A DNA stretch of 64,000 bases, taken from contig CM059431.1 in NCBI GenBank assembly GCA_030390025.1, positions 123,754,001-123,818,000 of the forward strand, given 5' to 3'. A program made the position numbers and the translations under genes. Below are positions 3,932 to 59,032 of this stretch, one piece after another. This DNA is from Squalus acanthias (Eukaryota). Position 1 is the first letter of the stretch. Each line of letters begins with the position of its first letter. Below the pieces are notes generated by a model, which saw nothing but the letters and a program-made list of their open reading frames with translations, ran no database searches and was not told where the DNA came from.

Positions 3932-4768
3932 GGGCTGGATTCTGTCAGCCCCGAGGAGGCGGGTATGGAGGCCGGTAAAGTTGCAGAATTTGGGGGCGGG
4001 TGGCAAACCCGCCCCCATCCTGCCTCCGTGCCCTCTTGCCAGGAGGCGGGAAGCTGTCCTGTCCCGGATCCCGTCTCCTCGAGGCGGGAAAGGGATTAAA
4101 GCCTATTAACTGCCTGTTAACAGGTAGTTAACAGGCAGAAAATAGGATTATCCACATTTTTCATTTCGATGTACAGGCTTCCCAACCTCGGGGAACCCCG
4201 CCAGGGTGAAGGAGATGAGTAGGAGGTCTGTGGAGGTTGGAGGGGTCTGAAAGTGCAATGTAGAGGTGAGTGATGGGTGCAAGTGTGGAGTGGTAAGTAT
4301 GTAAGGTGAGTGTAAAGTGTTAGAAAATGTTCACTTACCTTTGTTTCTGCCTACAGCCTTCAGCCGCTGTGGAGCCAGAGTCCCGACATCTCCATTGTAG
4401 ATTTCACAGACTGGCTGTTGGATCCTGCAATCCAATAGCCAGGTGATTTCTACAAAGTTGAAAGGTTTGATGAGTCCTGAACACAAATACTCATCAAACT
4501 ACACAGAATGTCAGTGTTTGACAGCTTCACAGAGCTGTCAAACGCTGACATTTCTTCTTTCAAAAACTCTTAACAGATGTCACATCATACATTGACATGC
4601 TCTGTCACTGACTTCCCCCTAATTGGCCTGCTGAGCCCGCAGGGAGGGCTTAACAAGGTCAATCAGGGGAAAATCCCGCTGGTTGGTCAGAAACTGATGG
4701 AGGCGGGATTGAAAGCTGGCAAGCAGCAATCCCGCCTTCAAAGGCTTCCCATTGACAAAATCCAGCCC
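3932..4768 (+). mobile_element. Harbinger-type MITE family X, complete copy (837 bp)
   Basis: TIRs GGGCTGGATTCTGTCA/TGACAAAATCCAGCCC; 3-bp TSD TTT; interrupts CR1 ORF2. Confidence 0.9.
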
Positions 4769-5938
4769 TTTGTGTCTGCCTTCATGGAAGAAGTCGCAAA
4801 AAGCTTCCCGGAAATAGTGGAGAACAAAGGCTCTGGCGAGAATGAGGAATTGAAAGAAATTAGTATTAGTAAAAAAATAGTACTGGAGAAATTAATGGAA
4901 CTGAAAGCCAATAAATCACCTGGACCTGATGGCCTACATCCTAGGGTTTTGGAAGATAGAGGATGCATTGGTTGTCATTTTCCAAAATTCCATAGATTCT
5001 GGAATGGTTCCTGCAGATTGGAAGTTAGCAATGTAACTCCATTATTTAAGAAAGGAGGGAGAGAGAAAACAGGAAACTACAGACCTGTTAGCCAGACATC
5101 AGTAGTAGGGAAAATGCTACAAACTATTATTAAGGACGTGGTAACAGGGCACTTAGAAAATAATAATAGGATTGGGCAGAGTCACAACGGATTTATGAAA
5201 GGGAAATCATGTTTGACAAATCTGTGAGAGTTTTTTGAGGTTGTAACTAGCAGAATAGATAAGGGCGAACCAGTGGATGTGGTGCATTTGGATTTTCAGA
5301 AGGCATTCGATAAGGTGCCACACAAGAGGTTATTAAACAAAATTAGAGCTCATGGGATTGGGGGTAATATTCTAGCATGAATTGAGGATTGGTTAACGGA
5401 CAGAAAACAGAGAGAAGGAATAATTGCGTCATTTTCAGGTTGACAGGCTGTAACTTGTGGGGTACCACAAGGATCAGTGCTTGGGCCTCAGCTGGACCAG
5501 CCAAATAAATACTGTGGCAAAATGAGCAGGTCAGAGGCTAGGTATTCTGCGGCGAGTGTCTCACCTCCTGACTCCCCAAAGCCTTTCCACCATCTACAAG
5601 GCACAAGTAAGGAGTGTGATGGAATACTCTCCAGTTGCCTGGATGAGTGCAGCTCCAACAACACTCAAGAAGCTCAACACCATCCAGAACAAAGCAGCCC
5701 ACTTGATTGGCACCTCATCCACCACCTTAAACATTCACTCCCTCCACCACTGGCACACCGTGGCTGCAGTGTGTACCATCTACAAGTTGCACTGCAGCAA
5801 CTCGCCAAGGCTTCTTTGGCAACACCTCCCAAACCCGCGACCTCTTCCACCTAGAAGGACAAGGGCAGCAGGCGCATGGGAACACCACCACCTCCAAGTT
5901 ACCCTCCAAGTCTTCACGGAGGAAGACACAAAAAACCT

Positions 5939-6229
5939 GGAGCGGCTGCGGCGAGGCGGAGGACTCAAGAGGCGGCGGCGACCAGGTAGGCCCACAGAGG
6001 CGGCGGACCTGGGTGGAGCGGCTGCGGCGAGGCGGAGGACTCAAGAGGCGGCGGCGACCAGGTAGGCCCACAGAGGCGGCGGACCTGGGTGGAGCGGCTG
6101 CGGCGAGGCGGAGGACTCAAGAGGCGGCGGCGACCAGGTAGGCCCACAGAGGCGGCGGACCTGGGTGGAGCGGCTGCGGCGAGGCGGAGGACTCAAGAGG
6201 CGGCGGCGACCAGGTAGGCCCACAGAGGC
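5939..6229 (+). repeat. 76-bp GC/CpG-rich tandem monomer, about 3.8 copies (CR1 5'UTR)
   Basis: Units start at 5939, 6015, 6091 and 6167 and appear identical. Confidence 0.95.
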
Positions 6230-6425
6230 TTTTAAAGTGCAGGACGCAGTGGTTGCTGGGTAGGTGATTAATTTTTACCTGTATATAAGTTGGGCGGTTC
6301 CTAAACCCGAGACACTACACTTGTAGTGTCCCCCACCCTTCCTCCTCCTCTAACCTAAAGGAGGTGAGTGACTATCAGGTAAGCTCTTTTTTGTTCTAGT
6401 TTAATCTGCAAGTTAGCTGGAGGGG

Positions 6426-7352
6426 ATGGCAGGGGAGGCAGTGAAATGTTCCTCCTGCAGAATGTTTGAGGTGAGGGACGCCGTAGGTGTCCCTGCTGAT
6501 TACACCTGTGGGAAGTGCACCCATCTCCAGCTCCTCGAAAACCGTGTTAGGGAACTGGAGCTGGAGCTGGATGAACTTCGGATCATTCGGGAGGCAGAGG
6601 AGGTCATAGATAGAAGCTTCAGGGATGTAATTACTCCAAAGCATGAAGATAGATGGGTGACGGTGAGAGGGGCTAGGAGGAAGCAGTCAGTGCAGGGATC
6701 CTCTGTGGTCGTTCCCCTCAGTAACAGGTATACCGCTTTGAATACTGTTGAGGGGGACGACTTACCAGTGGTAAGCCATGGTGACCGGATCTCCGGCGCT
6801 GGGTCCGTCCCTGTGGCTCAGAAGGGAAGGGGGGAGAGCAGGAGAGCAATAGTTATTGGGGACTCAATAGTCAGAGGGACAGATAGGAGGTTCTGTGGCA
6901 GCAAAAGAGACTCACGGATGGTATGTTGCCTCCCGGGTGCCAGGGTCCGTGACGTCTCGGACCGTGTTTTCAGAATCCTCAAAGGGGAGGGGGAACAATC
7001 ACAAGTCGTGGCACACATCGGTACCAACGACATAGGTAGGAGAAGGGACGAGGATTTAAAACAGGAATTTAGGGAGCTAGGTTGGAAGCTGAGAGCCAGT
7101 ACAAACCATGTTGTAATTTCTGGTTTGTTGCCGGTGCCACGTGCTAGCGAGTTGAGGAACAGGGAGAGAGTGCAGATAAACACGTGGCTGCAGGGATGGT
7201 GTAGCGGGGAGGGTTTCAGTTATGTGGATAATTGGAGCACATTCTGGGGAAGGTGGGACCTGTACAAACAGGACGGTTTGCACCTGAACCAGAGGGGCAC
7301 CAATATCCTGGGAGGGAAATTTGCTACGGCTCTTCGGGGGGGTTTAAACTAA
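6426..7352 (+). CDS. CR1 ORF1p (308 aa): CxxC...CxxC zinc-binding motif, coiled coil, SGNH/GDSL esterase domain
   Basis: CSSC...CGKC; LENRVRELELELDEL; IVIGDSIVRG, HIGTNDI and DGLHL motifs. Confidence 0.93.
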   Translation: MAGEAVKCSSCRMFEVRDAVGVPADYTCGKCTHLQLLENRVRELELELDELRIIREAEEVIDRSFRDVITPKHEDRWVTVRGARRKQSVQGSSVVVPLSNRYTALNTVEGDDLPVVSHGDRISGAGSVPVAQKGRGESRRAIVIGDSIVRGTDRRFCGSKRDSRMVCCLPGARVRDVSDRVFRILKGEGEQSQVVAHIGTNDIGRRRDEDLKQEFRELGWKLRASTNHVVISGLLPVPRASELRNRERVQINTWLQGWCSGEGFSYVDNWSTFWGRWDLYKQDGLHLNQRGTNILGGKFATALRGGLN

Positions 7353-10249
7353 TTTGTCAGGGGGATGGGAAAAAGGGCTGTAGTCCACGAGCCAGTGGTG
7401 AGTGTAGGGAGGTACTGAGGAGGGTATCAAGGTCGCAGGAATGTACCGGCAGACAGGAAGATGGCTTGAAGTGTGTCTACTTCAATGCAAGGAGCATCCG
7501 GAATAAGGTAGGAGAACTTGGAGCGTGGATTGGTACTTGGGACTACGATGTGGTGGCCATTACGGAGACATGGTTAGAACAGGGACAGGAATGGTTGTTG
7601 GAAGTTCCGGGGTATAGATGTTTCAGTAAGAGTAGGGAAGTTGGTAAGAAAGGTGGAGGAGTAGCATTGTTAATCAAGGATAGTTTAACAGCGGCAGAAA
7701 GGCAGTTCGAGGGGGATCTGCCGTCTGAGGTAATATGGGCTGAAGTTAGAAATAGGAAAGGAGCGGTCACATTGTTAGGAGTTTTCTACAGGCCCCCAAA
7801 TAGTAATAGAGATGTGGAGGAAGAAATTGCAAAGCAGATTATGAATAGGTGTGGAGGTCACAGAGTAGTTGTCATGGGTGACTTCAACTTTCCAAATATT
7901 GATTGGAACCTTTATAGGTCAAACAGTTCGGATGGGATAGTTTTTGCACAGTGTGTGCAGGAGGGTTTCCTGACACAATATGTGGATAGGCCGACAAGAG
8001 CTGGGGCCACGTTGGATTTGGTACTGGGTAATGAACCGGGCCAAGTGTTTGATTTGTATGTGGGAGAGCACTTTGGAGATAGTGACCACAATTCGGTAAC
8101 TTTCACTATTGCAATGGAGAGGGATAGGGCCATACGGCAGGGCAGGGTTTATAATTGGGGGAGGGGTAATTATGATGCGATTAGGCAAGAATTAGGGAGT
8201 ATAAGATGGGAACAGAAACTATCAGGGAAAGGCACAAACGAAAAGTGGAGCTTTTTCATGGAGCAATTACTGCGTGTCCTTGATAGGTATGTCCCTGTCA
8301 GTCAGGGAGGAAATGGCCGAGTGAGAGAACCATGGTTCACAAAAGAGGTTGAATGTCTAGTCAAGAGGAAAAAGGAAGCGTATGTAAGGATGAGAAAACA
8401 AGGTTCAGTTGGGTCGATTGAGGGGTACAAGGTAGCAAGGAATGAGCTAAAAAAAGAGCTTAGGAGAGCTAGGAGGGGGCATGAGAAGTCCTTGGCGGGT
8501 CGGATCAAGGAAAACCCCAAGGCTTTTTACTCTTATGTGAGAAATAAAAGAATGACCAGGGTGAGGGTAGGGCCGGTCAAGGACAGTAGTGGGAACTTGT
8601 GCATGGAGTCAGAAGAGATAGGAGAGGTGATGAATGAATACTTTTCGTCAGTGTTCACCGAGGAGAGGGGCCATGTTCTTGAGGATGAGAGTGTGATAAA
8701 GGTGGATAGGCTGGAGGTGGTAGATGTTCTGAGGGAAGATGTTTTAGCAATTTTGAAGAACCTGAGGGTCGATAAGTCCCCTGGGCCAGATGGGATATAT
8801 CCTAGGATTCTTTGGGAGGCAAGGGAGGAGATTGCAGAGCCTCTGGCTTTGATCTTTGGGTCCTCACTGTCCACGGGAATGGTGCCAGAGGACTGGAGAG
8901 TGGCGAATGTTGTTCCTCTCTTCAAGAAAGGAAATAGGAATGACCCTGGTAATTATAGGCCGGTTAGTCTTACTTCGGTGGTTGGTAAGATAATGGAAAA
9001 GGTCCTGAGGGATAGGATTTATGACCATTTGGAAAGGGGCAACTTAATCAGGGATAGTCAACACGGATTCGTGAAGGGTAAGTCTTGCCTAACAAATTTG
9101 ATTGAATTCTTTGAGGAGGTAACTAAGTGTGTAGATGAAGGTAGAGCAGTTGATGTCGTATACATGGATTTTAGTAAGGCGTTTGATAAGGTTCCCCATG
9201 GTCGGCTTATGAAGAAAGTAAGGAGTTGTGGGATAGAGGGAAATTTGGCTGATTGGATAAGTAACTGGCTATCTCATAGAAGGCAGAGGGTGGTGGTGGA
9301 TGGAACATTTTCGGACTGGAGACCAGTTACCAGCGGTGTGCCACAGGGGTCGGTGCTGGGTCCTCTGCTGTTTGTGATTTTTATCAATGACTTGGAGGAG
9401 GGGACTGAAGGGTGGATCAGTAAATTTGCTGATGACACCAAGATTGGTGGAGCAGTGGATGAGGTGGAGGGCTGTTGTAGGCTGCAAAGAGACATTGATA
9501 GGATGCAGAGCTGGGCCAAAAAATGGCAGATGGAATTTAACCCTGATAAGTGCGAGGTGATTCATTTTGGTAGGGCAAATTTGAATAAGGATTACAGGGT
9601 CAACGGCAGGGTTCTGAGGAACGTGGAGGAACAGAGGGATCTGGGGGTTCATATCCACAGATCTCTGAAGGTTGCCACTCAAGTGGATAGAGCAGTAAAG
9701 AAAGCCTATGGTGTGTTGGCGTTTATTAACAGAGGTTTTGAGTTTAAGAACCGTGAGGTTATGCTGCAACTGTACAGGACCTTGGTGAGACCACATTTGG
9801 AATATTGTGTGCAGTTCTGGTCACCTCACTATAGGAAGGACGTGGAAGCATTGGAAAGAGTGCAAAGGAGATTTACCAGGATGCTGCCTGGTTTGGGGGG
9901 GAGGTCTTATGAGGAAAGATTGAGGGAGTTGGGGCTTTTCTCTTTTGAGCGGAGGAGGATGAGAGGCGACTTAATAGAGGTTTATAAGATGATGAGGGGG
10001 ATAGATAGAGTGGATATTCAGAGACTATTTCCTCGGGTAGAGGCAGCTGTTACAAGGGGGCATAACTATAAGGTGCATGGGGGGAGATATAGAAGGGATG
10101 TCCGAGGTAGATTCTTTACTCAGAGAGTGGTTGGGGTGTGGAATGGACTGCCTGCTGTGATAGTGGAGTCGGACACTTTAGGAACTTTCAAGCGGTTATT
10201 GGATAAGCACATGGAGCACACCAGAGTGATAGGGAGTGTGATAGCTTGA
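7349..10249 (+). CDS. CR1 ORF2p (APE endonuclease + reverse transcriptase); start given at the predicted -1 frameshift entry, frame open from 7232
   Basis: NARS, ITETWL, YRPP, GDFN, LDLVL and SDHN endonuclease motifs; YMDFSKAFDKVPH, GVPQGSVLGP and FADD RT motifs; no stops; first in-frame ATG only at 7841. Confidence 0.9.
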   Translation, partial: LICQGDGKKGCSPRASGECREVLRRVSRSQECTGRQEDGLKCVYFNARSIRNKVGELGAWIGTWDYDVVAITETWLEQGQEWLLEVPGYRCFSKSREVGKKGGGVALLIKDSLTAAERQFEGDLPSEVIWAEVRNRKGAVTLLGVFYRPPNSNRDVEEEIAKQIMNRCGGHRVVVMGDFNFPNIDWNLYRSNSSDGIVFAQCVQEGFLTQYVDRPTRAGATLDLVLGNEPGQVFDLYVGEHFGDSDHNSVTFTIAMERDRAIRQGRVYNWGRGNYDAIRQELGSIRWEQKLSGKGTNEKWSFFMEQLLRVLDRYVPVSQGGNGRVREPWFTKEVECLVKRKKEAYVRMRKQGSVGSIEGYKVARNELKKELRRARRGHEKSLAGRIKENPKAFYSYVRNKRMTRVRVGPVKDSSGNLCMESEEIGEVMNEYFSSVFTEERGHVLEDESVIKVDRLEVVDVLREDVLAILKNLRVDKSPGPDGIYPRILWEAREEIAEPLALIFGSSLSTGMVPEDWRVANVVPLFKKGNRNDPGNYRPVSLTSVVGKIMEKVLRDRIYDHLERGNLIRDSQHGFVKGKSCLTNLIEFFEEVTKCVDEGRAVDVVYMDFSKAFDKVPHGRLMKKVRSCGIEGNLADWISNWLSHRRQRVVVDGTFSDWRPVTSGVPQGSVLGPLLFVIFINDLEEGTEGWISKFADDTKIGGAVDEVEGCCRLQRDIDRMQSWAKKWQMEFNPDKCEVIHFGRANLNKDYRVNGRVLRNVEEQRDLGVHIHRSLKVATQVDRAVKKAYGVLAFINRGFEFKNREVMLQLYRTLVRPHLEYCVQFWSPHYRKDVEALERVQRRFTRMLPGLGGRSYEERLRELGLFSFERRRMRGDLIEVYKMMRGIDRVDIQRLFPRVEAAVTRGHNYKVHGGRYRRDVRGRFFTQRVVGVWNGLPAVIVESDTLGTFKRLLDKHMEHTRVIGSVIA

Positions 10250-11338
10250 TCTTGGTCTCGGACAATGCTCGGCACAACATCGAGGGCCGAAGGGCCTGTA
10301 CTGTGCTGTACTGTTCTATGTTCTATGTTCTATGTAAATATAAGAAAACCAAGGGTGTGACGAGAATGAGGAACTTAAAGAAATCATTATTAGTAAAACA
10401 GTACTAGCAAAATTAATGGGACTAAAAGTTGATAAATCCCAAGGACCGGATGACCTACATCCTAGGGTTTTGAAAGAGGTCGCCATTGGGATAGTGGACG
10501 CATTGGTTGTCATCTTCCAAAATTCTATAGTTTCTGGAACGGTTCCTGCAGATTGGAGGATAGCAAATGTAACCCCGCATTTAAGAAAGGAGGGAGAGAG
10601 AAAATGGGGAACTACAAACCTGTTAGCCTCACATCAGTTGTTGGGAAAATGCTGGAATCTATTATGAAGGATACAATAACTGGGCACTTAGAAACTAATA
10701 GTAAGATTGGGCAGAGTCAACATGGATTTATGAAAGGGAAATCCTGTTTGACAAACATATTGGAGTTCTTTGAGGATGTAACTAGTGGAGTAGACAAAGG
10801 GGAACTGGTAGATGTGGTGTATCTGGATTTTCAGAAGGCCTTCGATAAGGTCCCACACAAGAGGTTGGTGAACAAAATTAGGGCACATGGAATTGGGGGT
10901 AATATACTAGCATGGATTGAGAATTGGTTAACAGACAGAAAACAAAGAGTAGGGATAAACGGGCCTTTTTCAGGATGGCAGGCTGTGACTAATGGGGTAC
11001 CGCAAGGATTGGTGCTTGGTCCCCAGCTAATCACAATCTATATCAATGATTTGGATGAGGCGACTAAATGTAACATTTCCAAATTTGCTGATGATACAAA
11101 GCTAGGTGGCAGTGTCAGTTGCAAAAAGGATGTGAAGAGGCTTCAAGGGGATCTCGACAGGCTCAGTGAGTGGGCGAGATTATGGCAGATGGAATATAAT
11201 GTGGATAAATGTGAAGTTATCCACTTTGGTAGAAAAAACAGAAAGGCAGAGTATTTCCTAAATGGTGAAAGATTGGGAAATGCAGATGCTCAAAAGGGAC
11301 CTGGGTGTCCTTGTACATGAGTCACTGAAAGTGAATGT

Positions 11339-12987
11339 TGTAAAGTTTCGCAATTATCGCGATTCAAAATAACATAAGAGAAGCAGATTCGTTTGATCAG
11401 TTTTATTAAATGAAATGCTGTCCTGATAATAAAGGACACAGAAGCCTGTAAAATGGCCACCGAGCATCGTGGCAGAAGCTTCCAGAGACACAGTGGGCAG
11501 ACAAGATGGCGTTGAATATACATTTAGTATAAGATTGGATCATACTCGGTAAACACTGATAAAGACAGGATGCAATCCGTTTGCATTTGAAACAATAGCA
11601 AAGATATAAGTGCTGGAATTGTTTTCCATGCACAAGTAAGGATCATTGTACTGGGCAATCGAAGGCCCATCCAGACACATCAATACACAAATATCCCCCG
11701 GCTCTACAATGAGAGAGACATTGACGGGTGATTAAGCAAGTATTCGGGGGCCCCCAAAACCAGTCAGGGAGACGATTCGTACACATCCTGGCTGGGTCAA
11801 CAATGGGGAAAACATTAACGGATAGTTGGCCAGTTTCAGGTGCTACCGAAACCCGTTAAAGAAGACAACCGCCCCATGCTGGGAGTTTTGTGCACCAGTA
11901 TTACACAAAGGAAAAACATTAAGATTTGAGCGGGAGATAAGGAGGACACATCACTATAACTATAGAGAACAAATGTCCATCGGTCTCTTGATTCTCTTGA
12001 CTCGGGCTGAACTCTTATTCTCTTTTCTCTCGGCGGACCCTTGCTGAAGCTCTTCCTTAGGGCTGGACTTTGTTGACTCTTGACTTTTAGCCGTACTGGT
12101 CGGTTATTCGAATGTTGGGTGGAGCTCACTCGGAACGAGCCGCCCCGACAAGGGCAAGTAACAGGGTGCACCATCCCGAGTGTCGGTAAACGGTGTCTGG
12201 ACCCGAAGGCCCGAAGAGACGAGACGAGACGAGAAGAAGAGGAGAAGAATCCACGTGCCGCCACGGTCAGTAAACCCCGACCGCGCCCGAAAATATACAT
12301 AAAGAACTTTTCATTGAAGTCTACCGACAACCGGTGTCGAGCACAGGAAGACTCTTCTTTGAATTTTACAAACGTTTCCGAGTTCTGTCGAGTTCTTCAT
12401 GACAACAAGGAGTCTGGCCTGCTTGTCGCAGCAGTGAAAATAAACAAGTGGGGTGCAGAGACACTTGCAAACACGTGACAGTCAGGCGCTGCAGCGAAAC
12501 GAGCTGAGTGCCTCACTTTAAAATTCTCCGAAGTAACACGAGTGGTGAGCATGTTTCCCGATCCTACAAATCTAGACGTAGTGTAGGTATTGTTAAGGGA
12601 GGGTGGTTATTAAGGTTAAAGTATAATGTGTTCCCCTTTTTACGATGTGCCGTGCGTTCTTCATTTCCATAGACCAAGCTTTATGAATGTATGTATACTT
12701 GTACTCTCGTTAATTTGCGCCTATGACATGTACTTCATGATTTTGGACGCTATGCAATAAAGATTTCCATTTCGTACTATTCAACCGGGTCTATTTGAGT
12801 TTTTCTCTGCATTACTGCTCTCGCACCTAAGTCCAGTGTTAGAACCGTAAGGGCGAGTGGGTCGAACCACTCACAGGTGCTTATTGCAAAAAGGCTGGCC
12901 GGAGACCAGAGCAAGCAATAGTATTAGGCAACGAAGGCCTAACCTCGCACCAGCACCGTCTCTGAGACACAGGCACAAACCCTTACA
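11339..12987 (+). mobile_element. Solo LTR, family A copy 2 (1649 bp)
   Basis: TGT...ACA termini; 4-bp TSD ATGT (11335-11338, 12988-12991); TATA-like AATATACATAAA near 12292; AATAAA near 12756. Confidence 0.92.
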
Positions 12988-15009
12988 ATGTGCAGGTGCA
13001 GCAAGCCATTAGGAAGGCAAATGGTATGCTGGCCTTCATTACAAGAGGATTTGAGTACAGTAGTAAAGAAGTCTTACTCCAATTATATAGGGCCTTGGTG
13101 AGACCACACCTGGAGTACTGTGTACAATTTTGGTCTCCTTACCTAAGGAAGGATATACTTGCCATAGAGGGAGTGCAACGAAGGTTCACAAGATTGATTC
13201 CTGGGATGGCGTGACTGTCGTATGAGAAGAGATTGAGTAAACTAGGCCTGTATTCTCTTGAATTCAGAAGAATGAGAGGGGATCTCATTGAAGCATTCCA
13301 AATTATTACAGAGCTTGATAGGATGGATGCTGGGAGAATGTTTCCCTTGGCTGGGGAGTCTAGAACCAGGGCCACAGTCTCAGGATAAAGGGTAGGCCAT
13401 TCAAGACTGAGACGAGAAGAAATTTCTTCACACAAAGGGTGGTGAATCTTTGGAATTCTCTACCCTAGAGGGCTGTGGAGGCTCAGTCATTGGGTATATT
13501 CAAAACAGAAGTCGATAGATTTCTGACTCGTAAATGCATCAAGGGATATGGTGATAGGGCCGGTGAATGGAGTTGAGGCAGAAGATCAGCCATGATCTCA
13601 TTGAATGGTGGAGCAGGCTCGAAGGGTTCTGATGTAAATCACACACCATCCTGACTTAGAAGTATATCACTGATCCTTCATCATCGCTGGGTCAAAATCC
13701 TGGAACTCCCCACCTAACAGCACTGTGGGAGTACCTTCATCACAGGGACTGCAGCGGTTCAAGAAGACAGCTCACCACCACCTTCTCAAGGGCAGTTAGG
13801 GATGGGCAATAAATGCTGGCCTTGTCAGCGACGCCCACATCCCAAAAACAAATTTACAAAAAGCTATTCATAATCTACATCAATGATTTGCATGAGGGGA
13901 CCAAATGTATTATATCCATGTTTGCTGATGATACAATGTTGGGTGGGAATGTAAGTTGTGAGGAGGATGCAAGGAGGCTTCAATGGGATATAGACAAGCT
14001 AAGTGAGTGGGCAAGAACATGTCAAATGGAATATAATGTGGAGAAATGTGAAGTTATCCACTTTGGTAAGAAAAATAGAAGAGCATTGTATTTTTTAAAT
14101 GGTGAGAGATTGGGAAATGTTGGTGTTCAGAGGGACTTGGGTGTCCTTTTACCCGAATCACTGAAAGTTAACATGCAGGTACAGCAAGCAATTAGGAAAG
14201 CAAATGGTATTTTGGCCTTGATTACAAGAGGATTTGAGTATAAGAGTAAAGACGTCTTACTGCAATTATATAGGGCCCTGTTGAGACCACACCTGGAGTA
14301 TTGCATACAGTTTTGTCTCCTTGCCTAAAGAAGGATATACTTGCCATAGAGGGAGTGCAATGAAGGTTCACCAGACTGGTTCCTGGGATGGGGGGATTGT
14401 CCTATGAGGATAGATTGAGTTGACTAGGCCTATATTCCCTAGAATTTAGAAGAATGAGAGGTGATCTCATTGAAACATACAAATTCTTACTGGGCTTGAC
14501 AGGGTAGATGCTGGGAGGATGTTTCCCCTGGCTGGGGAGTCTAGAACCAGGGGTCACAGTCTCAGAATAAGGGGTCGGCCATTTAGGACTGAGATGAGGA
14601 GAAATTTCTTCAGAGGGTGAGGAATCTTTGGAATTCTCTACCCCAGAGGGCTGTGGAGCTCAGTCGTTGAGTATATTCAAGACAGAGTCCAATAGATTTT
14701 TGAATATTAAGGGATATGGGGATAGTTTGGGAAAGTGGAGATGGGATAGAAGATCAGCCATGATCTTATTGAATGGCGGAGCAGGCTCGAAGGGCCAAAT
14801 GGTCTACCCCTGCTCCTATTTCTTATGTTCTTATGTAACTTGCGGATGACTTGCTTGTTGATTTTTACTGGCTCTGTGTAAGTTTGTGGAACTGTTCAGA
14901 CCTTTCTACAATTATTTAAAGTTGGTGAGGTGAGAGGGAGTGGTGCTGCAAGTGGGGAAGGCCTTGCTTCTGAATTCAAGGGTTCTGCTCACACCACTTG
15001 CTCCCAGTC

Positions 15010-21250: not shown

Positions 21251-24200
21251 TTGGACAAGGTTGAATAGGTAATGTTGTTGTTGTAAATATGTGTTCACTG
21301 ATTATTAATAATATTATTAATTCAGTTTGGATTATTTTGTGATGTCTCTCATTTCAGCTTTGTGCTGTGAAATGACCTGTGACAGGGATGTAATGATGGG
21401 GATGTGGTGAGCAATGGGGATCTGGAGTTTAATTTATTGGAACCGCAGTCTGATGAGGTGGTCACGGACCGCATTTTTGGAAGGCCGATTGAGTGGCTGC
21501 CTTCTCCCTCGCTCCTGTTCCTCCTCCTTCTCTTCCTCCTCATCTTCCTCTTCCTCTTCCTGAGGTGGTCCCACAATCCCTGGTGGCAAGGGCTGGGCCT
21601 TCGTGATGGCCAAGTTGTGGCACGTGCAGCAGATCTCGCGAAAAGGGACACCCGCTCAGCCGAGTACTGGAGGGCTCCTCCCGCGCGGTCAATGCAGCGG
21701 AACTGTTCCTTGAGCACCCCAATGGTCTGCTCGATGATGTTCCTGTACGCGGCATGGCTCTCATTGTATGAGTGCTGGGCAGGAGTGTTGAGGTTGCGGA
21801 GGGGAATCATAAGCCAGGTGAAGAGCGGATAACCCTTGTCTTCGACTAGCCAGCCGCCAGCTTGACGTGGTGGCTGGTAGAGTGCTGGCACACTGGTCTG
21901 GTGCAGGATGAAGGCATCGTGGCTGCTGCCAGGATAATGGGCATTCACATTGAGGATTTGCTGTCTGTGGTCGCACACAAACTGCACCTTAAGTGAGTGG
22001 TAGCCTTTGCGGTTACGGAAAATCAAAGGTAGTAATCTCCGGATTACTCCCGGTGCCAAGTGCTGGTGAGTAAAGGAATAGAAGAATAGAACAGATGAAT
22101 GTGTGGCTGGAGAGATGGTGCAGGAGGGAGGGCTTTAGATTCCTGAGGAATTGGGACCATTTCTAGGGAAGGTGGGACCTGTACAAGCCGGACGGGTTAC
22201 ACCTCAACAGATCCGGGACCAATATTCTCGCGAGGAGGTTTGCTAGTGTTGTTGGGGAGAGTTTAAACTAGCTTGGCAGGGGGATGTGCACCAACCTATA
22301 GGAATAGAAAAGAGGAATAAGGTGCATAAAAGAGTGAATGTGTTGGATAGTACGAGAGAAGAAAGTAGTACATATAGGAAGTAGTACCATATTAGATAGG
22401 AGCAGACTAAGAAAGACTACAAAAAATTCAAAAATGGGTTTAGAATGCATGTACGTAAATGCACAAAGTGTGGTGAATAAGGCTGGTGAGCTACAAGCAC
22501 AATTAGCTGTGTGGCAATATGATGTTGTGACAATAACGGAAACGTGGCTTAAAAATGGTGAGAACTGGGCAATTAATATTCAAGATACAGGTGTTCAGAA
22601 AAGATAGGGAAGGAAAAAAGGGAGGTGGCGTGGCAGTGCTGATTAAGGAAGACATTGTAGTGTTGGAAAGGGAGGATGTTCTTGAGGGGACAAGGACAGA
22701 ATCCATTTGGTTAAACTTGTAGAGCAAAAAGGGTATGATCACGCTATTGGGGGTATTCGACAGGCCTCCAAATAGTGAGAGGGAGGTAGAGGAGCAAATC
22801 TGCAGACTTTAATCTGGGGGACTTTAATTACCCAAATATCGATTGGGATAATACTAGGGTAAAGGGAAAGGAGGGGGAGAAATTTCTGAAATGTGTTCAG
22901 GAGAATTTCCTTGACCAGTATGTTCTTGGCCCAACTAGGAAGGAGGCATTGCTGGATCTGGTGCTGGGAAATGAGTTGGGCTATGTCGACCAAGTGGATA
23001 ACACTTGGGTACGAGTGATCATCGTATCATAAGATTTAGATTAGCAATGGAGAGGAGCAAGGAACAATCTAGAGTGGAACTTCTAAACTGGAATAGGGCT
23101 AACTTCAATGGGATGCAAAAGCATCTAGTCAGGGTAAAATGGAACCAAAGACTGACAGGAAAAATTGTAACAGAACAATGGGTGATCTTTAAGGAGGAGA
23201 TGTTGCAAGTACAGCCTAGGTACATTCCAACATGAGGGAAGGGTAGGGGAAACAAAGCAAGGGCTCTTGGATGACGAGGGAGATAGAGAAGATGATGAAA
23301 CAAAAAAAGAGGGTGTATGATGCATGTCAGGTCAATTCTTCAAGGGAAAACCAGACCAAATACAATAAGTTGAGAGGGGATGTGAAGATGAAAATAAAAT
23401 TGGCAAAGAGAGAATATGAGAGTAGAATGGCAGTTAACATGAAAGGGAACCTAAAAATCTTCTCCCGGCATGTAAACAGTAAGCAGGTAGTAAGAGGTGG
23501 CGTGGGGCCTATTAGGGACAAAGAAGATGATAAATGCTTAGAGGCACAGGGAAAGGCTAGAATATTCAATGAGTACTTTGTATCTGTGTTTACTAAGGAG
23601 GTGGATGCTGACAAAATATCAGGAGAAGTGGAAAAGGTAGAAGCAATGGAAGGGGTGAAAATTGATAGACAGGATGTACTAGAAAGGCTGGGAATGCTTA
23701 GAGTGGATAAGTCACCTGGTCCAGATGGCTTGCATCCCAGGTTGCTAAGGGAATTGGGGGAGGAGATAGCAGAAGGGCTTGCCATAATTTTCCAATCTTC
23801 CCTAGATGCGGGAGAGGTGCCTGAGGATTGGAAAGTGGCAAATGTGACAACATTTTCAAGAAAGGGTGTAAGGACAATCCTAGTAACTACAGGCCAGTCA
23901 GTTTAACATCAATGGTGGGTAAAGTTTTAGAAACAATAATCAAGAAAAAATTAACGGGCTCTTGGAGAGGTGGTTTAAGCTAATGAAGGAGAGCAAACAC
24001 AGATTTGTAAAAGGCAGATTGTGTTTGACTAATCTAATTAAATTATTTGATGAAGTAACAGGGAGGATTGATAAAGGGAATGCAATAGATGTTATCTGTA
24101 TGGATTTTAGGAAGGTGTTTGACAAAGTACCGCATAGAAGGCTGGTTAGCAAAATTGAGGCTCATGGAATAGGTAGGTCAGTGGCAGCTTGGATAAGGAA

Positions 24201-25117
24201 TTGGCTTAAGGACAGAAAACAGCAAGTTGTGGTAAATGGCTGTTTTTCAGACTGGAGGATGGTCGACAGTGGTGTTCCCCAAGGGTCAGTGCTGGGGCCA
24301 CTGCTTTTTTTGACATATATAAATGACCTGGATATTGGAATACAGAATAGAATTTCTAAATTTGCCGATGACACCATACTTGGGGGTGTGGCAAACAGTG
24401 AGGATGATACCAATCGACTGCAACAGGACATAGAAAGGCTAGCAGAATGGGCAGACAAGTGGCAGATTGAATTTAATACAGAGGAGTGTGAGGTGATACA
24501 TTTTGGCAGAAGGAACAGGGAGAGGTAATATACATTTAATGGCACAGTTTTAAAGTGTGTGCAGGGACAGAGGGACCTGGGAGTTAATGTGCATCGGTCC
24601 CTAAAGGTGGCGGGACATATTGAGAGAGTGGTTAGCAAAGCATATGGGATCTTGGGCTTCATAAATAGAGGTATTGAGTACAAAAGTAGAGAAGTTATGC
24701 TGAACCTTTATAAAGTGCTGGTTAGGCCACAACTGGAGTATTGTGTCCAGTTCTGGTCACCACACTTTAGGAAGGATGTAAAGGCACTTGAGAGGATGCA
24801 GAGGAGATTTACCAGAATGGTCCTGGGGATTGGGGGTCTTAGCTACAAGGACAGGTTGGAGAAGCTGGATTTGTTTTCATTAGGGCAAAGGAGGTCGAGG
24901 GGTGATTTGATAGAGGTGTACAAGATTATGACGGGTTTGGATAGGCAAGACGGGGAAAGGCTGTTCCCACTAGTTGATGGTACAAGGACTAGGGGACACA
25001 GATTTAAGGTTTTGGGCAAGCGATACAGGGGGGATGTGAGGAAAAACTTTTTTATGCAGCGAGTGGTGAGGTCCTGGAACTCGCTGCCGACAGAAGTGGT
25101 GGAAGCGGAGACACTTG

Positions 25118-25918
25118 GGGCTGGATTTTGAACCCGCCTCCTTCGAGATGTGGCCAACCCACTGCATTTTCCCTTGATTGACCTTGTTGAGCCCGCCCAG
25201 TGGGCTCAGCAGGCCATGTAAGGGCCACCCGGCAACAGGTGACATCACAGACTGACATTTCATCTGTCAAGAGCTTTTGACAGATGAAATATCAGCGTTT
25301 GACAGCTCTGTGAAGCTGTCAAACACTGACAGTACGATTTCTAACTTCAGTCCTTCCTTTCAGGCTGAGTTAGAAATCATTCCAGCACAGAAATCAGAAG
25401 GCTGCTGTTTTTGACAGGTCCACAGCTTTCCTGCTTTCTGTGCTGGTGAGATTTCTAACTCCCGAGAACTGAAGGGCTGACACCTGCAGGAGGAAGTTAA
25501 GGTAAGTAAAACTTTTTCCAACACTTAGCACTTACCTTGCACACTTACCTCTGCACACATGCACCCATCACTCACCTGCCCACCGGACATATCGACCCCT
25601 CCAACCCCTGCAGACCCACGGCCCGCCCCGATAACTTGGCGTGGTTGCCACCTGTCGGGAAGCCCACACTTTTCCTTTTAAAATAGGGATTATGCAAAAA
25701 AACTGCCTGTTAACACCCTGTTAACAGGCAGTTAATTGTCACTAATCCCTTCCCGCCTCAGGGAGTCGGGTCTCAGACCAGGTCGGGTACCCACCGCCAG
25801 AGAAACTGGCATGGAGGCGGGTTGGAGTCGGGATGGGGTCGGGACCCCCGATTCTGCAACTTTAACCACCCCCCCCCGCCTGCAAACCCGACTCCACGGG
25901 TCATTGAAAATCCAGCCC
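25118..25918 (-). mobile_element. Harbinger-type MITE family X, diverged reverse copy
   Basis: TIRs GGGCTGGATTTT/AAAATCCAGCCC; same TGACAG hairpin block in reverse; inserted in CR1 ORF2 3' end; TSD imperfect. Confidence 0.85.
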
Positions 25919-41187: not shown

Positions 41188-41302
41188 ATGCACAAGGGTA
41201 TGCATATGGATGTTTTCCAAGATGTTACATTGTTGGTTTCATTTCTATTTGTAACCCACATAAATTTATTTCTTTGCACCACTTTCCCGTTTTGTCTTGT
41301 GA

Positions 41303-41790
41303 TTCACCAGGCTGATACCTGGGATGGCAGGAATGATGTATGAGGAGAGATTGGGTCGATTAGGCTTATATTCGCTAGAGTTTAGAAGAATGAGAGGGGA
41401 TCTCATTGAAACTTATAAAATTTTAACAGGACTAGACAGACTAGATGCAGGAAGGATGTTCCCGATGGCGGAGGAGTCCAGAACTAGGGGTCACAGTCTA
41501 AGGATAAGGGGTAAGCCATTTAGGACTGAGATGAGGAGGAATTTCTTCACCCAGAGAGTGGTGAACCTGTGGAATTCTCTACCACAGAAGGCAGTTGAGG
41601 CCAATTCATTAAATATATTCAAGAAGGAGTTAGATATATTTCTTAAGACTAACGGGATCAAGGGATATGGGGAGAAAGCAGGGACAGGGTACTGAATTTG
41701 GATGATCAGCCATGATCTTATTAAATAGCGGAACAGGCTCGAGGGGCCGGATGGCCTACTCCTGCTCCTATCTTCTATGTTTCTATGTTT
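41303..41790 (+). mobile_element. CR1 3' fragment
   Basis: YEERLGRLGLYSLEFRRMRGDLIE...RTRGH; 3'UTR and (TTTCTATG)n tail. Confidence 0.9.
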
Positions 41791-51951: not shown

Positions 51952-52420
51952 CATAGGAACATAGGAACAGGAGGAGGCCATTCAGCCCCTCGAGCCTGTT
52001 CCACCATTAATGAGATCATGGCTGATCTACGACCTAACTCCACCTACCCGCCTTTGGCCCATATCCCTTAATACCATTGGTTAACAAAAATCTATCAATC
52101 TCACATTTAAAATTAACAATTGATCTAGCATCAATTGCCATTTGCGGAAGGGAGTTCCAAACTTCCACCACCCTTTGTGTGTAGAAGTGTTTTCTAATTT
52201 CACTCCTGAAAGGTCTGGCTCTAATTTTTAGACCATGCCCCCTAGTCCTAGAATCCCCATCCAGCGGAAATAGTTTCTCTCTATCTACTCTATCTGTCCC
52301 CCTTAATATCTTGAAAACTTAGATCAGATCACCCCTTAATCTCTTAAATTCTAGGGAATGCAACCCTAATTTGTGTAATCACTCCTCGTAACTTAACCCT
52401 TGCAGTCTGGGTATCATTCT
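51952..52420 (-). mobile_element. CR1 3' fragment
   Basis: (CATAGGAA)n tail and reverse ORF2 C-terminus. Confidence 0.85.
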
Positions 52421-52424
52421 CAGT

Positions 52425-52935
52425 AGGAGATGCAACGTTTTACCCTTTTACCCCCTCCCTTCCCACCTTGCAGGGCCCTAAAAACTCCTTCCAGGTGAAA
52501 CAGCAATTTACTTGTACTTCTTTCAATTTAGTATACTGAATTCGCTGCTCATGATGCGATCTCTTCTACACTGGGGAGAAGAAACGCAGATTAGGTGATC
52601 GCTTTGCGGAACACCTCCATTCAGCCCGCAAGCATGGCCCTGAGTCTCTGGTCGCTTGTCACTTTAATTCTCCGACCTACTTCCACTTTGACCTCTCTGT
52701 CCTCGGCCTCCTACACTGTCGTAATGAAGCTCAACGGAAGCTCGAGAAACAGCACCTCATATTTCGATGAGGCACTTCACAGCCTTCTGGACTCAGCGTT
52801 GAGTTCAACAATTTCAGATCATAACCACTGCTACCATTTTTTCGGTCAGCACTTGCTGGTAATGATTCTGCTTCTGTTATTTTCAGCTCCTCTAGACCCA
52901 TCTTTTGTTTCTTTTATTGCCCCATTACCACCATC
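52425..52935 (+). mobile_element. Penelope-like element fragment (GIY-YIG endonuclease pseudogene)
   Basis: Translates as FTCTSFNLVY*IRCS*CDLFYTGEKKRRLGDRFAEHL, the GIY-YIG signature of Penelope-like elements. Confidence 0.8.
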
Positions 52936-53357
52936 TTAATGCCACGAAGAGTGATTGATGAGTCAGATTACCTGACTAATGGCCCTGAATTTCCTGGATT
53001 ACATTTACATTGAAATTATGCCGAAGTTTTAGGATAGTTTCTGCGCTGATCTTGCTAATGGGAAGTTTTCTGCAGAGCTCATTTCCCTAAACTGGAATGT
53101 AAAAAGCAGCGTCAAACAAGCGCAAATACAGCACCACGAACAGGGGTAATAGCGAGATTGGTGTTGTCATCTGCTATGGCCCCTCTCTTGCCTCTGCTGC
53201 TTGTAAGCTTCGCAAAATTCCCCAGAAACTTTTATAGAACCCTAAAAGGGGTGATTTTTGGATTTTTCCTACGAATTTGGGATGATGGGACCTAAGTGAA
53301 GTGATTTGAGGTAAAACCCTCAGTTTTGGACATTTAAAGATCAGGGAAGAAAAACCC

Positions 53358-53962
53358 AGTACAAAGAAGGATCACTCGATTAATCCCGAGGATGAGGGGG
53401 TGGACATATGAGGAGAGGTTGAGTAGATTGGGACTCTACTCATTGGAGTTCAGAAGAGTGAGAGGCGATCTTATTGAAACATATAAGATTGTGAAGGGGC
53501 TTGATCGGGTGGATGCGGTAAGGTTGTTCCCAAGGATGGGTGAAACTAGAACTAGGGGGCATAATCTTAGAATAAGGGGCTGCTCTTTCAAAACTGAGAT
53601 GAGGAGAAACTTCTTCACTCAGAGGGTAGTAGGTCTGTGGAATTTGCTGCCCCAGGAAGCTGTGGAAGCTACATCATTAAATAAATTTAAAACAGAAATA
53701 GATAGTTTCCTAGAGGTAAAGGGAATTAGGGGTTACGGTGAGTGGGCAGGAAATTGGACATGAGGCTGAGTTCGGATTGATCAGGGCCCTGCGGGTGGCG
53801 GAGCGGGCCCAGGGGCTGAGTGGCCGGGTCCTGCTCCTACTTCTTGTGTTCTTTAGATTTGAGGTTAGGATCAGATCAGCCATGATCTTATTGAATGGCG
53901 GAGCAGGCTCGAGGGGCCGATTGGCCTACTCCTGCTCCTATTTCTTATGTTCTTATGTTCTT
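53358..53962 (+). mobile_element. CR1 3' fragment with a duplicated 3' terminus
   Basis: Open ORF2 C-terminus (53392-53763), two successive 3'UTR-end modules and a (TTCTTATG)n tail. Confidence 0.9.
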
Positions 53963-54537: not shown

Positions 54538-56862
54538 ACATAGAAACATAGAAACATAGAAAATAGGTACAGGAGTAGACCATTCGGTCCTTCGAGCCTG
54601 CACCGCCATTCAATGCGTTCATGGCTGAACATGCTACCTCAGTACCCCATTCCTGCTTTCTCGCCATACCCCTTGATCCCCCTAGTTGTGAGTGTTATAT
54701 CTAACTCCCTTTTGAATATATTTAGCGAACTGGCCTCAACAACCTTCTGTGGAAGAGAATTCCATAGATTCACCACTCTCTGGGTGAAGAAGTTCCTCCT
54801 CAGCTCAGTCTTAAATGGCTTCCCCTTAATCCTTAGACTGTGACCCCTGGTTCTAGTTTTCCCTACCATTGGGAACATTCTGCCCGCATCTAATTTGTCT
54901 AAACCAGTCAGGATTTTAAATGTCTCTATAAGATCCCCCCTCATTCTTCTGAACTCCAGAGGATACAAGTTCAGTTGACCCAATCTTTCTTGATATGTCA
55001 GTCCGGCCATCCCAGGAATCAATCTAGTGAACCTTCGCTGCACTCCCTCAATAGCAAGAATGTCCTTCCTTAAGTTAGGAGACCAAAACTGCGCACAATA
55101 CTCCAGGTGTGGCCTCACCAAGGCCCTGTACAACTGTAGCATCACCTCCCTACTCCTGTACTCAAATCCCCTTGCTATGAAGGCCATCATTCCGTTTGCT
55201 TTCTTGACTGCCTGCTGCACTTGCATTCCCACCTTCAGTGACTGATGTACCATGACGCCCAGGTCTCGTTGCACCTCCCCTTTCCCTAATCTGCCACCAT
55301 TCAGGTAATAGTCCGCCTCTCTATTTTTACCACCAAAGTGGATAACCTCACATTTATCCACATTGTACTTCATCTGCCATACATTTGCCCATTCACCCAA
55401 CCTGTCCAAGTCACTCTGTAGCCTCCTAGCATCCTCCTCATTGTTCACACTGCCTCCCAATTTAGTGTCATCCGCAAATTTGGAGATATTACATTTAATC
55501 CCTTCGTCCAAATCATTAATATATAATGTAAACAGCTGGGGTCCCAGCACCGAACCCTGCGGTACCCCGCTGGTCACTGCCTGCCATTCTGAAAAGTACC
55601 CATTTACTCCTACTCTTTGTTTCCTGTGTGCCAACCAGTTCTCAATCCACGTCAACACATTACCCCCAATCCCATGTGCTTTAACTTTGCTCACCAATCT
55701 CTTGTGTGGGACCTTGTCGAAGGCCTTCTGAATGTCCAAATACACCACATCTACTGGTTCCCCCCTGTCCACCCTATTGGAAACATCCTCAAAAAATTCC
55801 AGAAGATTTGTCAAGCATGATTTCCCTTTCACAAATCCATGCTGACTTGGACCTATCATGTCGCCACTTTCCAAATGGTCTGTTATGACATCTTTAATAA
55901 TTGCTTCCATCATTTTACCCACGACCGATGTCAGGCTGACCGGTCTATAATTCCCTGCTTTCTCCCTCCCTCCTTTTTTAAAAAGAGGGGTTACATTGGC
56001 CACCCTCCACTCTATCGGAACTGATCCAGAGTCTAAGGAATGTTGGAAAATGATCGTCAATGCATCCACTATTTCCAAGGCCACCTCCTTAAGTACTCTG
56101 GGATGCAGACCATCAGGCCCCGGGGATTTTTCAGCCTTCAGTCCCATCAATTTCCCCAATACCTTTTCCCGACTAATAATGATTTCCCTCAGCTCCTCCC
56201 TCTTACCAGATCCTCTGACCCCTTTTATTTCCGGCAGGTTGTGTGTGTCCTCCACAGTAAACACCGAACCAAAGTACTTGTTCAATTGATCTGCCATTTC
56301 CTTGTTCCCCATTACGACTTCCCCTGTTTCCGACTGCAGGGGACCTACGTTTGTTTTTACTAACCTCTTTCTTTTTACATATTTATAGAAGCTTTTGCAG
56401 TCCATTTTAATGTTCTCTGCAAGCTTCCTTTCATATTTTATTTTCCCTGCCCTAATCAAACCCTTCGTCCTCCTCTGCTGAGTTTTGAAGTTCTCCCAGT
56501 CCCCGGGTTTGCTGGTACTTCTGGCCAATTTGTATGCAATTTCCTTGGTTTTAATACTATCCCTGATTTCCCTTGTTAGCCATGGTTGAGCCACCTTCCC
56601 TTTTTTATTTTTATGCCAGACCGGGATGTACAATTGTTGTAGTTCATCCATGCGATCTCTAAATGTCTGCCATTGCCCTTCCACTGATAGCCCCTTAAAT
56701 ATCGCTTGCCAATTTAACCTCGCCAATTCACACCTCATACCCTCAAAGTTGCCCTTATTTAAGTTCTGGACCATGGTCTCTGACTTAACTGTTTCCTTCT
56801 CCATCCTAATGTAGAACTCCACCATACTATGGTCACTCTTCCCCAGGGGGCCTCGTACTACA
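54538..56862 (-). mobile_element. Young 5'-truncated CR1 with an uninterrupted ORF2 fragment (54639-56870, 743 aa in the ORF track)
   Basis: Runs from the SDH endonuclease end through the full RT (FADD) to the stop; (CATAGAAA)n tail; ACTACA at both junctions. Confidence 0.92.
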
Positions 56863-59032
56863 AGCCACACGACACGAGCAGGAGGAGGAGAGAAGCAGCA
56901 AGGCCACGAGGCAGACCCAGGGCGAGATTAGAGGCAAGGACAGACAAGGCCAGGCAAGGGCTAGAGCTGAGGCCACTGGGAGCGAGTCGGCATCGCTCAG
57001 CACACGGTCTAGCACTAGCAGCCACTAGCCAAGGTCACTGGAGGCTGGGAGCGAGTCGGCATCGCTCAACCCATGGTCCAGCCCCAGAAGGTACCGCCCC
57101 GACAGGCCTCCAACGCAACAAAACTCGACGACCAGACAACCATCGCAGATTTCACAGACCGGTACCACGTGGGGACGGCAGGCCCCAAAGGACAAAAAGA
57201 GAGTACCTCAAAATCGCAATCAACTTACCTGGCTGGATTTCGAACTGTCAAAACCCCTGTTTGGTGAGCATTATCCCTGATCTCCTGAAACCAAAACCTA
57301 GCTAGATAGTGGGATCTTTGGGAGGGATAAGGGTTTTTGTATATTGTCCTTCTCCCTCGCCTGTACCGTGTGTTCCCCAACCTGTGTTTTAAGCATTAAG
57401 TGTGTTTTAAGTTTGTTACCTTTTTCTTTTAATAAAGTCAAAATTCTTTCAACAGAACCTGTTGTCTACTGCATCTTTATTCACAACCCCTAAATAAGTC
57501 CAAGGTCTAGAACAAGGGGCGTGGGAGTGATTCGAACCGCTCACTGAGTCAAAGGTGAGGCTGACCTCTACCACACCCCCCCCTACATGCTCCTCCTCCA
57601 TTATTGTGGAGAACAGGGGTATGTCCATAGAGAAGGCCATTCCAATTGCTTAGGCAGGGGTCTGAAAAATTTCGGGAGCATTGACATTTGACAGCACTTT
57701 GTTTGAGTAGAGTTCAGGTCACAGTAATTTTTAAAGAATTGCAAAGAAAATCACTATCAAACTCCAGAAATCTCAGTGACGGCAATATCAGCTGACATAG
57801 GGCTCGGTGCTACTAAATTTTGATGGGTAAAGGCATGCCTTGCTCATGACTGGCATAAAAGCAGGAAAGTCGGGTGAGCTGGACTTTTGCAAGGGGGCGG
57901 AACTATGTAACTGAGCGACAGAAGGTTTTGGCAGATGTATCTCGGAAGCGTCACATTGGTGCTTACCGATGTTTCAGTGTAAAACTGGTGTAAACCACTT
58001 ACGTGCAAATTTCCTTAGGAAACAAACAGCACCGTGCCATTCTTACACCATAGTTAGACTGAGAATTTCCAGGAAATTCCAGGCAGTGTTTTAATCTTCC
58101 TAATTTCAAATATTTATTGCAGAAGTTTAGTCTTAGATTTCCTAACTCAAAACTTTTTAAACAGCAGAGGTACATATAACTCAGTCATTCATCAATAGAA
58201 GTCTGTACATTAGAGTATGTCCAAATATAATTCGGAAATTAGTTCAGAAGTTGTGACAGTTTAAAATAATATGTGGAGTAGTGTACACCAAATCAATTAT
58301 ATAAGATAGAACAAGTATAAGGCATATAAGAATGTTCAAGGTACTAACCTGATGTTAGAAAAAGATAATTGACAAAGAACCAGGAAGAGAAAAGATTACA
58401 GATGAATCACTGAAAATGTATCACAAAGTCTGGAACTAACACAGTGCAGAGTAAGACAGGTGTGTTTTGAATTGGTAGTTATACGTTACCTAATTAAACG
58501 TTACCTACTGTTTTATTAATATTGTCTTAAGGTGAAAACTTAAACAAGAATCTCATGAGTACTACTTGTTACTTCAGTAAAGTGAATAGTGGCTTTGCCA
58601 AGCACATACTGTAATCTTTAAATGAAATGTAATACTTGTGCAATGTTAAATTTTATTCAGCTAATGCTGTGTTATTATAATTCCAATTATTGCTATGATG
58701 ATTATATTAACAATCATGTTATCCTTGACCACATAGATATCGGACAGCATTTTCAGACGCACTGTGTCACCTGCGGGGCCTTGTATGGGCGGGTGGTGAA
58801 TTGGAAAATTGCAGGTGAACTGCCTTTGATTTCTGATAATACGTCTGCTGCTAGTGAGGACCTGCTGGTAACATGGGGGTCTCAGAAAATGTTACTCATA
58901 GTCCTGGTTAGATCTATCATATCTTTGTCAGAGCTAAATGGCGTTTAACCAGTACTGTACTTAAGTGCTAATGGTGATCTTGGCTGGACCTTTTTAATTG
59001 AGCAAGTTTATGCAGGAGGACACAGACTCACG

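Follow-up and report, generated by a model that had tools for sequence, protein, structure and literature searches.

In Rous sarcoma virus (RSV) the slippery heptamer A_AAU_UUA is followed directly by the UAG codon of gag, and PEG10 carries the heptamer G_GGA_AAC. Retroviruses such as RSV and long terminal repeat (LTR) retrotransposons place an X_XXY_YYZ heptamer at the end of the upstream open reading frame (ORF), encode the reverse transcriptase (RT) in the -1 frame and make the fusion protein at a low ratio, as outlined for gag-pol frameshifting in general in the available part of the recoding review PMC5009743. A like organisation is found in a CR1-type long interspersed nuclear element (LINE) within the DNA analysed here, a stretch of 64,000 nucleotides (nt) of Squalus acanthias (assembly GCA_030390025.1, contig CM059431.1, positions 123,754,001 to 123,818,000 of the forward strand; "the window" below), where a low-ratio fusion would likewise be expected. 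Comparison across CR1 families makes it probable that an ancient programmed -1 ribosomal frameshift yields an ORF1-ORF2 fusion in these elements.

As in RSV, the stop codon of the upstream ORF abuts the heptamer in CR1. However, CR1 is a non-LTR element, its upstream protein is an esterase rather than Gag, and a pseudoknot or stable stem-loop was not found with folding tools of the scope given below. In arteriviruses and cardioviruses a motif lies ~10-14 nt 3' of the shift site. Frameshifting in these viruses is protein-stimulated (PMC4937337, PMC7939443; available portions) and involves, as may be the case in CR1, no strong structure but a short linear motif rich in purines or pyrimidines; that motif is C-rich and has known binding proteins, whereas the CR1 tract is G-rich, and the likeness is an analogy only. 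The coronavirus ORF1a/1b site has the same U_UUA_AAC heptamer in a deeply conserved overlap, but differs from CR1 in having a pseudoknot a few nt downstream and a 0-frame stop that is not fixed directly after the heptamer (PMC8499926, available part). Among LINEs, the unconventional termination/reinitiation of L1 and the UAAUG coupling of SART1 answer the same bicistronic ORF2 problem that CR1 faces; unlike CR1, these elements lack a slippery heptamer, start ORF2 at or near its own site and make separate proteins (PMC3894237, PMC5009743; available parts). Recoding has also been suggested for the out-of-frame ORFs of HeT-A and TART, the only non-LTR elements named in the available part of PMC5009743, and of Paramecium LINEs, with +1 frameshifting or reinitiation (PMC5405496). 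These belong to other clades and involve another direction or no defined site, and the accessible text reports no deeply conserved -1 heptamer for them.

In the window element ORF1 ends in GGT TTA AAC TAA, which sets TTTAAAC in X_XXY_YYZ phase directly before the stop, and ORF2 lies in the -1 frame relative to ORF1 and is open across the junction (7232..10249). The ATG at 7365 belongs to the ORF1 frame, and the earliest ORF2-frame ATG is at 7841, behind the endonuclease motifs NARS, ITETWL and YRPP. A one-base slip is predicted to give a protein of 308 + 966 = 1274 amino acids (aa) with the junction GGLN-LICQGD. An earlier sequence-only reading of this single copy had named the phased heptamer at 7343-7349, the open -1 frame, the placement of both ATG codons, the make-up of the predicted 1274-aa esterase-endonuclease-RT product and the G tracts downstream, and all of these were borne out by frame reading and Pfam comparison. 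The features of the element are as follows.

~5938-10335, forward strand: full-length CR1-type LINE, comprising 5' untranslated region (UTR), ORF1, ORF2 and 3' UTR
5938..6425, forward strand: LINE 5' UTR; 5938 is the leftmost point common to the longest other copies
6426..7352, forward strand: ORF1, 308 aa; N-terminal Cys motif and coiled-coil region, then SGNH/GDSL esterase; ends Leu-Asn-stop
7232..7352, forward strand: overlap open in both the ORF1 frame and the ORF2 (-1) frame, by frame reading
7343..7349, forward strand: slippery heptamer T_TTA_AAC in 0-frame X_XXY_YYZ phase
7349..10249, forward strand: ORF2 as it would be read after a -1 slip, 966 aa plus stop; apurinic/apyrimidinic (AP) endonuclease and RT
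7350..7352, forward strand: ORF1 stop TAA, directly abutting the heptamer; TAA or TAG in every lineage seen
7360..7377, forward strand: G-rich tract, GGGGGA from 10 nt past the heptamer; also encodes Gly-Asp-Gly of ORF2; candidate frameshift stimulator
10250..10335, forward strand: 3' UTR, read directly; short GGCC..GGCC hairpin and (TGTTCTA)x3 microsatellite tail, without poly(A)

Four in-phase XXXYYYZ sites occur in ORF1 (TTTAAAA, GGGTTTC, GGGTTTA and TTTAAAC), only the last two of them in the overlap. In the family of the window element (the window family) G_GGT_TTA directly precedes T_TTA_AAC, so that two in-phase heptamers overlap, a lineage-specific arrangement. One in-phase heptamer alone would be weak evidence and could be due to chance; the above-chance signal comes from the conservation of the heptamer rather than from the single copy.

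Copy searches in the 3.7-Gb source assembly showed ORF1 to end with NNT TTA AAC TAA/TAG in three deep CR1 families (42-61% ORF1 identity). NNT TTA AAC TAR closes ORF1 in 30/30 loci of the window family and in 26 of the 29 family 2 loci with a readable ORF1 end, one further family 2 locus that falls short of the ORF1 C-terminus lying outside the 29. The three family 2 exceptions are single decayed copies (GGA TTA AAC, TTA AGC and TTA AAA). Family 3 (~42% ORF1 identity), which includes many intact ORF1s of 321 aa, has GCT or ACT TTA AAC TAA in 12/12 loci, and the motif is kept in nine of ten further subfamily loci. The window itself contains a second CR1 copy, which is older, decayed and from a different family (61% ORF1 identity).

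22029..22290, forward strand: junction of the second CR1 copy; AGT TTA AAC TAG, then CAGGGGGATG

Thirty-one metagenome loci were fetched, eight of them with a readable ORF1 end; these eight are nearest to bird-named proteins ("bird-like" below), at ~30% ORF1 identity. GCT, TCT or ACT TTA AAC TAG is present in 6/8, the remaining two being a decayed copy and a copy with a broken ORF1 frame, in which gctttaaactag stands nine bases further on. ORF2 is in the -1 frame in every intact copy where the frame was measurable, while the position of its first AUG varies, with none before the endonuclease motifs in the window family and differing places elsewhere. In families 2 and 3 the -1 frame opens merely 22 nt ahead of the ORF1 stop and the heptamer lies inside those 22 nt; the frame switch must therefore fall in the stretch that holds the heptamer. 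When nine copies representing four deep lineages were anchored and compared without gaps, TTTAAACTA proved invariant between variable flanks.

The motif was also found among the CR1-group consensus sequences in Supplementary Table 2 of PMC13343379, given as the first 400 letters each; only 5'-truncated consensus sequences show the junction there, and the motif counts have no denominator. There were twenty matches (TTTAAACTAG, twelve; TTTAAACTAA, eight). By our reading seventeen of these close an ORF1, being preceded by sequence for the esterase C-terminus and followed by endonuclease sequence, and come from alligator, crocodile, bowfin, bullfrog, elephant shark (chimaera), stingray, sawfish, catshark, spiny dogfish, coelacanth and a halosaur (teleost). 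Of the other three, one lies in the AT-rich 5' region of an L2 and two in dogfish families, in the 5' UTR; GGTTTAAACTAR occurs ~100 nt from the 5' end of the SquAca_CR1-18 and SquAca_CR1-3 consensus sequences, upstream of the ORF1 ATG. A broader motif search of the same table showed no new junction type among the three places listed per term.

Conservation at the heptamer extends to synonymous sites. In twelve copies chosen for an intact ORF1 end, the terminal Leu is TTA in 12/12 and the terminal Asn is AAC in 12/12, whereas three other invariant Leu columns mix CTA, CTG, CTC, CTT, TTG and TTA, with four to five codons each, and the other invariant Asn column has AAC in three copies and AAT in nine. 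The codon before TTA varies (GGT, AGT, GAT, TGT, GCT, ACT, TCT), and with it the residue (Gly, Ser, Asp, Cys, Ala, Thr), yet it always ends in T. A phased X_XXY_YYZ heptamer, a downstream -1 ORF open across it and nucleotide conservation of the heptamer among diverged relatives, three of the marks of a canonical eukaryotic -1 site, are present. The sequence-only reading had proposed aligning CR1 junctions: heptamer, phase, abutting UAA/UAG and -1 ORF2 are kept in this comparison, with synonymous sites frozen at the heptamer and free elsewhere, and its suggestion of a -1 frameshift, made from one copy, gains strong support from lineages at ~30% ORF1 identity.

At the protein level, an alignment of 24 sequences selected for the Leu-Asn (LN) ending has a mean column identity of 40%, and its L307 and N308 columns do not vary. 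Without selection, LN closes 59 of the 64 close homologues extending to the C-terminus, at or close to the profile end, and 53/104 distant esterase ORF1 representatives. A U-ending codon is possible for the preceding residue in 111 of the 112 LN-ending proteins, the exception being one Glu. Other distant ORF1s end in QGN (eight: P0149, P0155-P0157, P0163, P0168, P0176, P0192), SGN (P0225), SKN (P0178) or EN (P0210, P0232). It can be predicted that the QGN and SGN endings would fit G_GGA_AAC and the SKN ending A_AAA_AAC, while EN and other tails in N would fit other XXXAAAC-type heptamers. Coding DNA for ORF1s of the QGN/SKN class was not found in the source genome (best 37-43% identity), the genome contigs or the viral contigs.

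The ORF1 homologues belong to elements of sharks, rays, frogs, turtles, snakes and birds, the best named ones being from sharks and rays. An NCBI entry for a Pseudomonas aeruginosa SGNH hydrolase (P0006) is a shark-type CR1 ORF1 (74% identical), and part of a CR1 esterase is encoded in a 506-nt contig of a Providencia assembly (L119); host DNA that contaminated the bacterial assemblies is the probable source of both. Further scans of genome contigs and viral contigs gave nothing useful beyond this 506-nt fragment.

The window element belongs to a young family. Among 1183 first-look candidates, at least 40 copies are 100% identical to it over 411 nt across the junction, and 29 other copies of the family are ~99% identical over 2-3 kb, with variable 5' truncation and matches starting at 5938 in 3/29. 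Since the copies are near-identical and the family young, an element with an AUG-less -1 ORF2 is very probably retrotransposing now, and some non-standard route to the ORF2 protein must therefore exist. The assignment of the window element to the CR1 clade rests on an ORF2 with AP endonuclease (PF03372, 8.2e-22) and RT (PF00078, 2.1e-37), an esterase-type ORF1 (reading frame 6417..7352, ATG at 6426, stop at 7350-7352; PF13472, GDSL_2, 4.9e-12), a 3' end with a short hairpin and microsatellite but without poly(A), and 5'-truncated copies (29 copies).

The slip, its efficiency and any contribution of the stop codon or G tract are what we infer from these sequence patterns. On the bicistronic CR1 RNA most ribosomes would read ORF1 to its end and stop at UAA. 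A minority, holding UUA with tRNA-Leu in the P site and AAC with tRNA-Asn in the A site, would slip one base back to UUU and AAA and read on through CUA AUU UGU into the 1274-aa esterase-endonuclease-RT fusion, slippage setting a low ORF2:ORF1 ratio as in retroviral gag-pol. The abutting UAA/UAG stop and the G-rich tract are probably part of the signal and might make ribosomes pause, form a weak or non-canonical structure or bind a protein. The tracts GGGGG AT GGG AAAAA GGG lie at 7360-7377, the first of them being conserved: GGGGGA stands exactly 10 nt past the heptamer in all shark and bird-like copies with an intact stretch, a spacing shared by the consensus sequences of alligator, crocodile-3a, chimaera, sawfish and catshark. 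All four deep lineages use GGG for the first Gly and have a G immediately before that codon, a constancy that hints at constraint on the RNA.

Several observations weigh against a frameshift at this site. The G tract is displaced in the bullfrog, coelacanth and SquAca_CR1-22 consensus sequences and missing from SquAca_CR1-17a, and it doubles as Gly-Asp/Glu-Gly coding in ORF2. RNAfold gave z-scores of ~0 for the 60-120 nt past the heptamer in the shark families, with no unusually stable fold, and the RNAalifold consensus fold of seven bird-like sequences is weak (-1.15 kcal/mol). A stable or conserved stem-loop 5-9 nt downstream was not found with these two tools, the scope of which excludes pseudoknots and G-quadruplexes. 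The bird-like contigs have a 6-bp hairpin ~27 nt after the stop, with double changes in two pairs and negligible energy. Around half of the distant esterase ORF1 representatives are without the LN ending, and many bird-like copies have an ORF2-frame ATG two codons past the heptamer, which fits reinitiation. A weakly stimulated site could nevertheless suffice, since LINEs would need very little ORF2 protein.

The main and serious rival to frameshifting is termination-coupled reinitiation, by which some ribosomes would, after UAA/UAG, resume translation close by in the ORF2 frame, either at an AUG where there is one, at some other codon or codon-independently, as has been proposed for L1 ORF2 and shown for the UAAUG of SART1, with the conserved block as the reinitiation signal. 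We consider it unlikely, although the stop keeps its position next to the ORF2 start in every lineage, CTA GAC ATG is frequent in bird-like copies, and the available part of PMC3894237 acknowledges ORF2 initiation in LINEs as an open question, citing SART1. No AUG or near-cognate codon is conserved, the position being AUU in two shark families, GCU in another and GGU or GAU in some bird-like copies, and a conserved restart codon that overlaps the stop or lies within a few nt of it, as in SART1- and calicivirus-type coupling, was not found at these junctions. An upstream UGGGA, which we take to be a TURBS-like motif, is present in the window family only. Reinitiation also gives no reason for a phased canonical heptamer with frozen synonymous sites. 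The block might instead serve another role, as a C-terminal Leu-Asn required by the esterase or as an RNA or DNA site for packaging or reverse transcription, with ORF2 expressed by an unrelated route. The invariance of Leu-Asn in the protein and the occurrence of the same 10-mer away from the junction, in the 5' UTR of SquAca_CR1-18 and -3, agree with such a role. However, a protein requirement would explain neither the fixed TTA and AAC codons nor the constant T that ends the codon before them, and distant esterase ORF1s that end in QGN, SKN or residues other than N indicate that Leu-Asn is not needed for the fold; this explanation appears very improbable.

Slippage of RNA polymerase or RT in the G run upstream of the heptamer (7 G in the window element) could add one G and so fuse the frames, and genomic copies with one extra base in the run, and a single frame of up to 1280 aa, do exist. 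They comprise L116 of the window family, with 8 G, and four copies from another subfamily, L114, L115, L117 and L118, in which the run covers nine positions (G7-A-G in L114, 9 G in the other three). Fused gene models are also known in rays (P0041, P0090), and the best 40 matches to the L115 junction differ in span (170 nt in 19, 171 in 16, 172 in four and 174 in one). However, family 3, the bird-like copies and the crocodilian consensus have no homopolymer (GAGAGGGC / GGGC before the heptamer) and yet retain the heptamer, a run of 7 G is common to at least 40 identical copies of the window family, and the homopolymer lengths may be assembly errors. Cis-preference is known for L1. If ORF2 protein came only from RNAs with the added G, acting in cis as we assume, new copies should be fused; given that assumption, the dominance of unfused, identical young copies argues that ORF2 protein is made from unfused RNA. 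The fused copies could form a fused-ORF subfamily, could have arisen when RT or a polymerase slipped, or could reflect misassembly of the homopolymer, and we attach hardly any probability to slippage in the G run as the source of ORF2 protein. Splicing, which the sequence-only reading had raised as an alternative using TTTGTCAG|G, gained no support: this stretch varies between families, and contigs of three public runs (X1, X3 and X19, the RNA origin of which is only guessed) cross the junction collinearly and without gaps, with no difference at 7343-7352.

A more far-reaching version of the frameshift reading is doubtful. In it, all jawed-vertebrate esterase CR1-type LINEs would make ORF2 protein solely as a fusion, by a module more than 400 million years old consisting of XXXAAAC, UAR and a G-rich tract. 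The module would act without RNA structure, stimulated by the stop and a protein bound to the G tract, possibly the ORF1 protein (with feedback control), and the QGN and SKN lineages would have swapped in G_GGA_AAC or A_AAA_AAC.

Apart from the two copies described, both strands of the window carry CR1-like ORF2 fragments from several families (4574-5494, 10344-11320, 12939-14658, 23268-25122, 41264-41665, 52085-53715, 54699-56882 and 59155-61646), so many that the window is largely LINE debris.

Full-text literature searches, the scope of which did not extend to older subscription papers on chicken and turtle CR1, returned no paper linking CR1 to frameshifting or to TTTAAAC/UUUAAAC. The words 'frameshift' and 'overlap' are absent from the 2026 CR1 survey PMC13343379, and the CR1 ORFs are treated as two separate proteins in PMC2734521 and PMC11835228. 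The sequence comparison supports a known mechanism, with an atypical stimulator, in an element class for which it has not previously been described as far as the searched literature shows. CR1 dominates among the LINEs of birds, crocodilians, turtles, snakes and elasmobranchs. If the frameshift is real, CR1 would use a gag-pol-like strategy, unlike L1, its active enzyme would be predicted to be an esterase-endonuclease-RT fusion, and a rare, ancient and chromosomally abundant vertebrate frameshift signal with an unusual stimulator would be added to those known. For annotation, the ORF2 of such CR1 elements should not be taken to begin at the first ATG.

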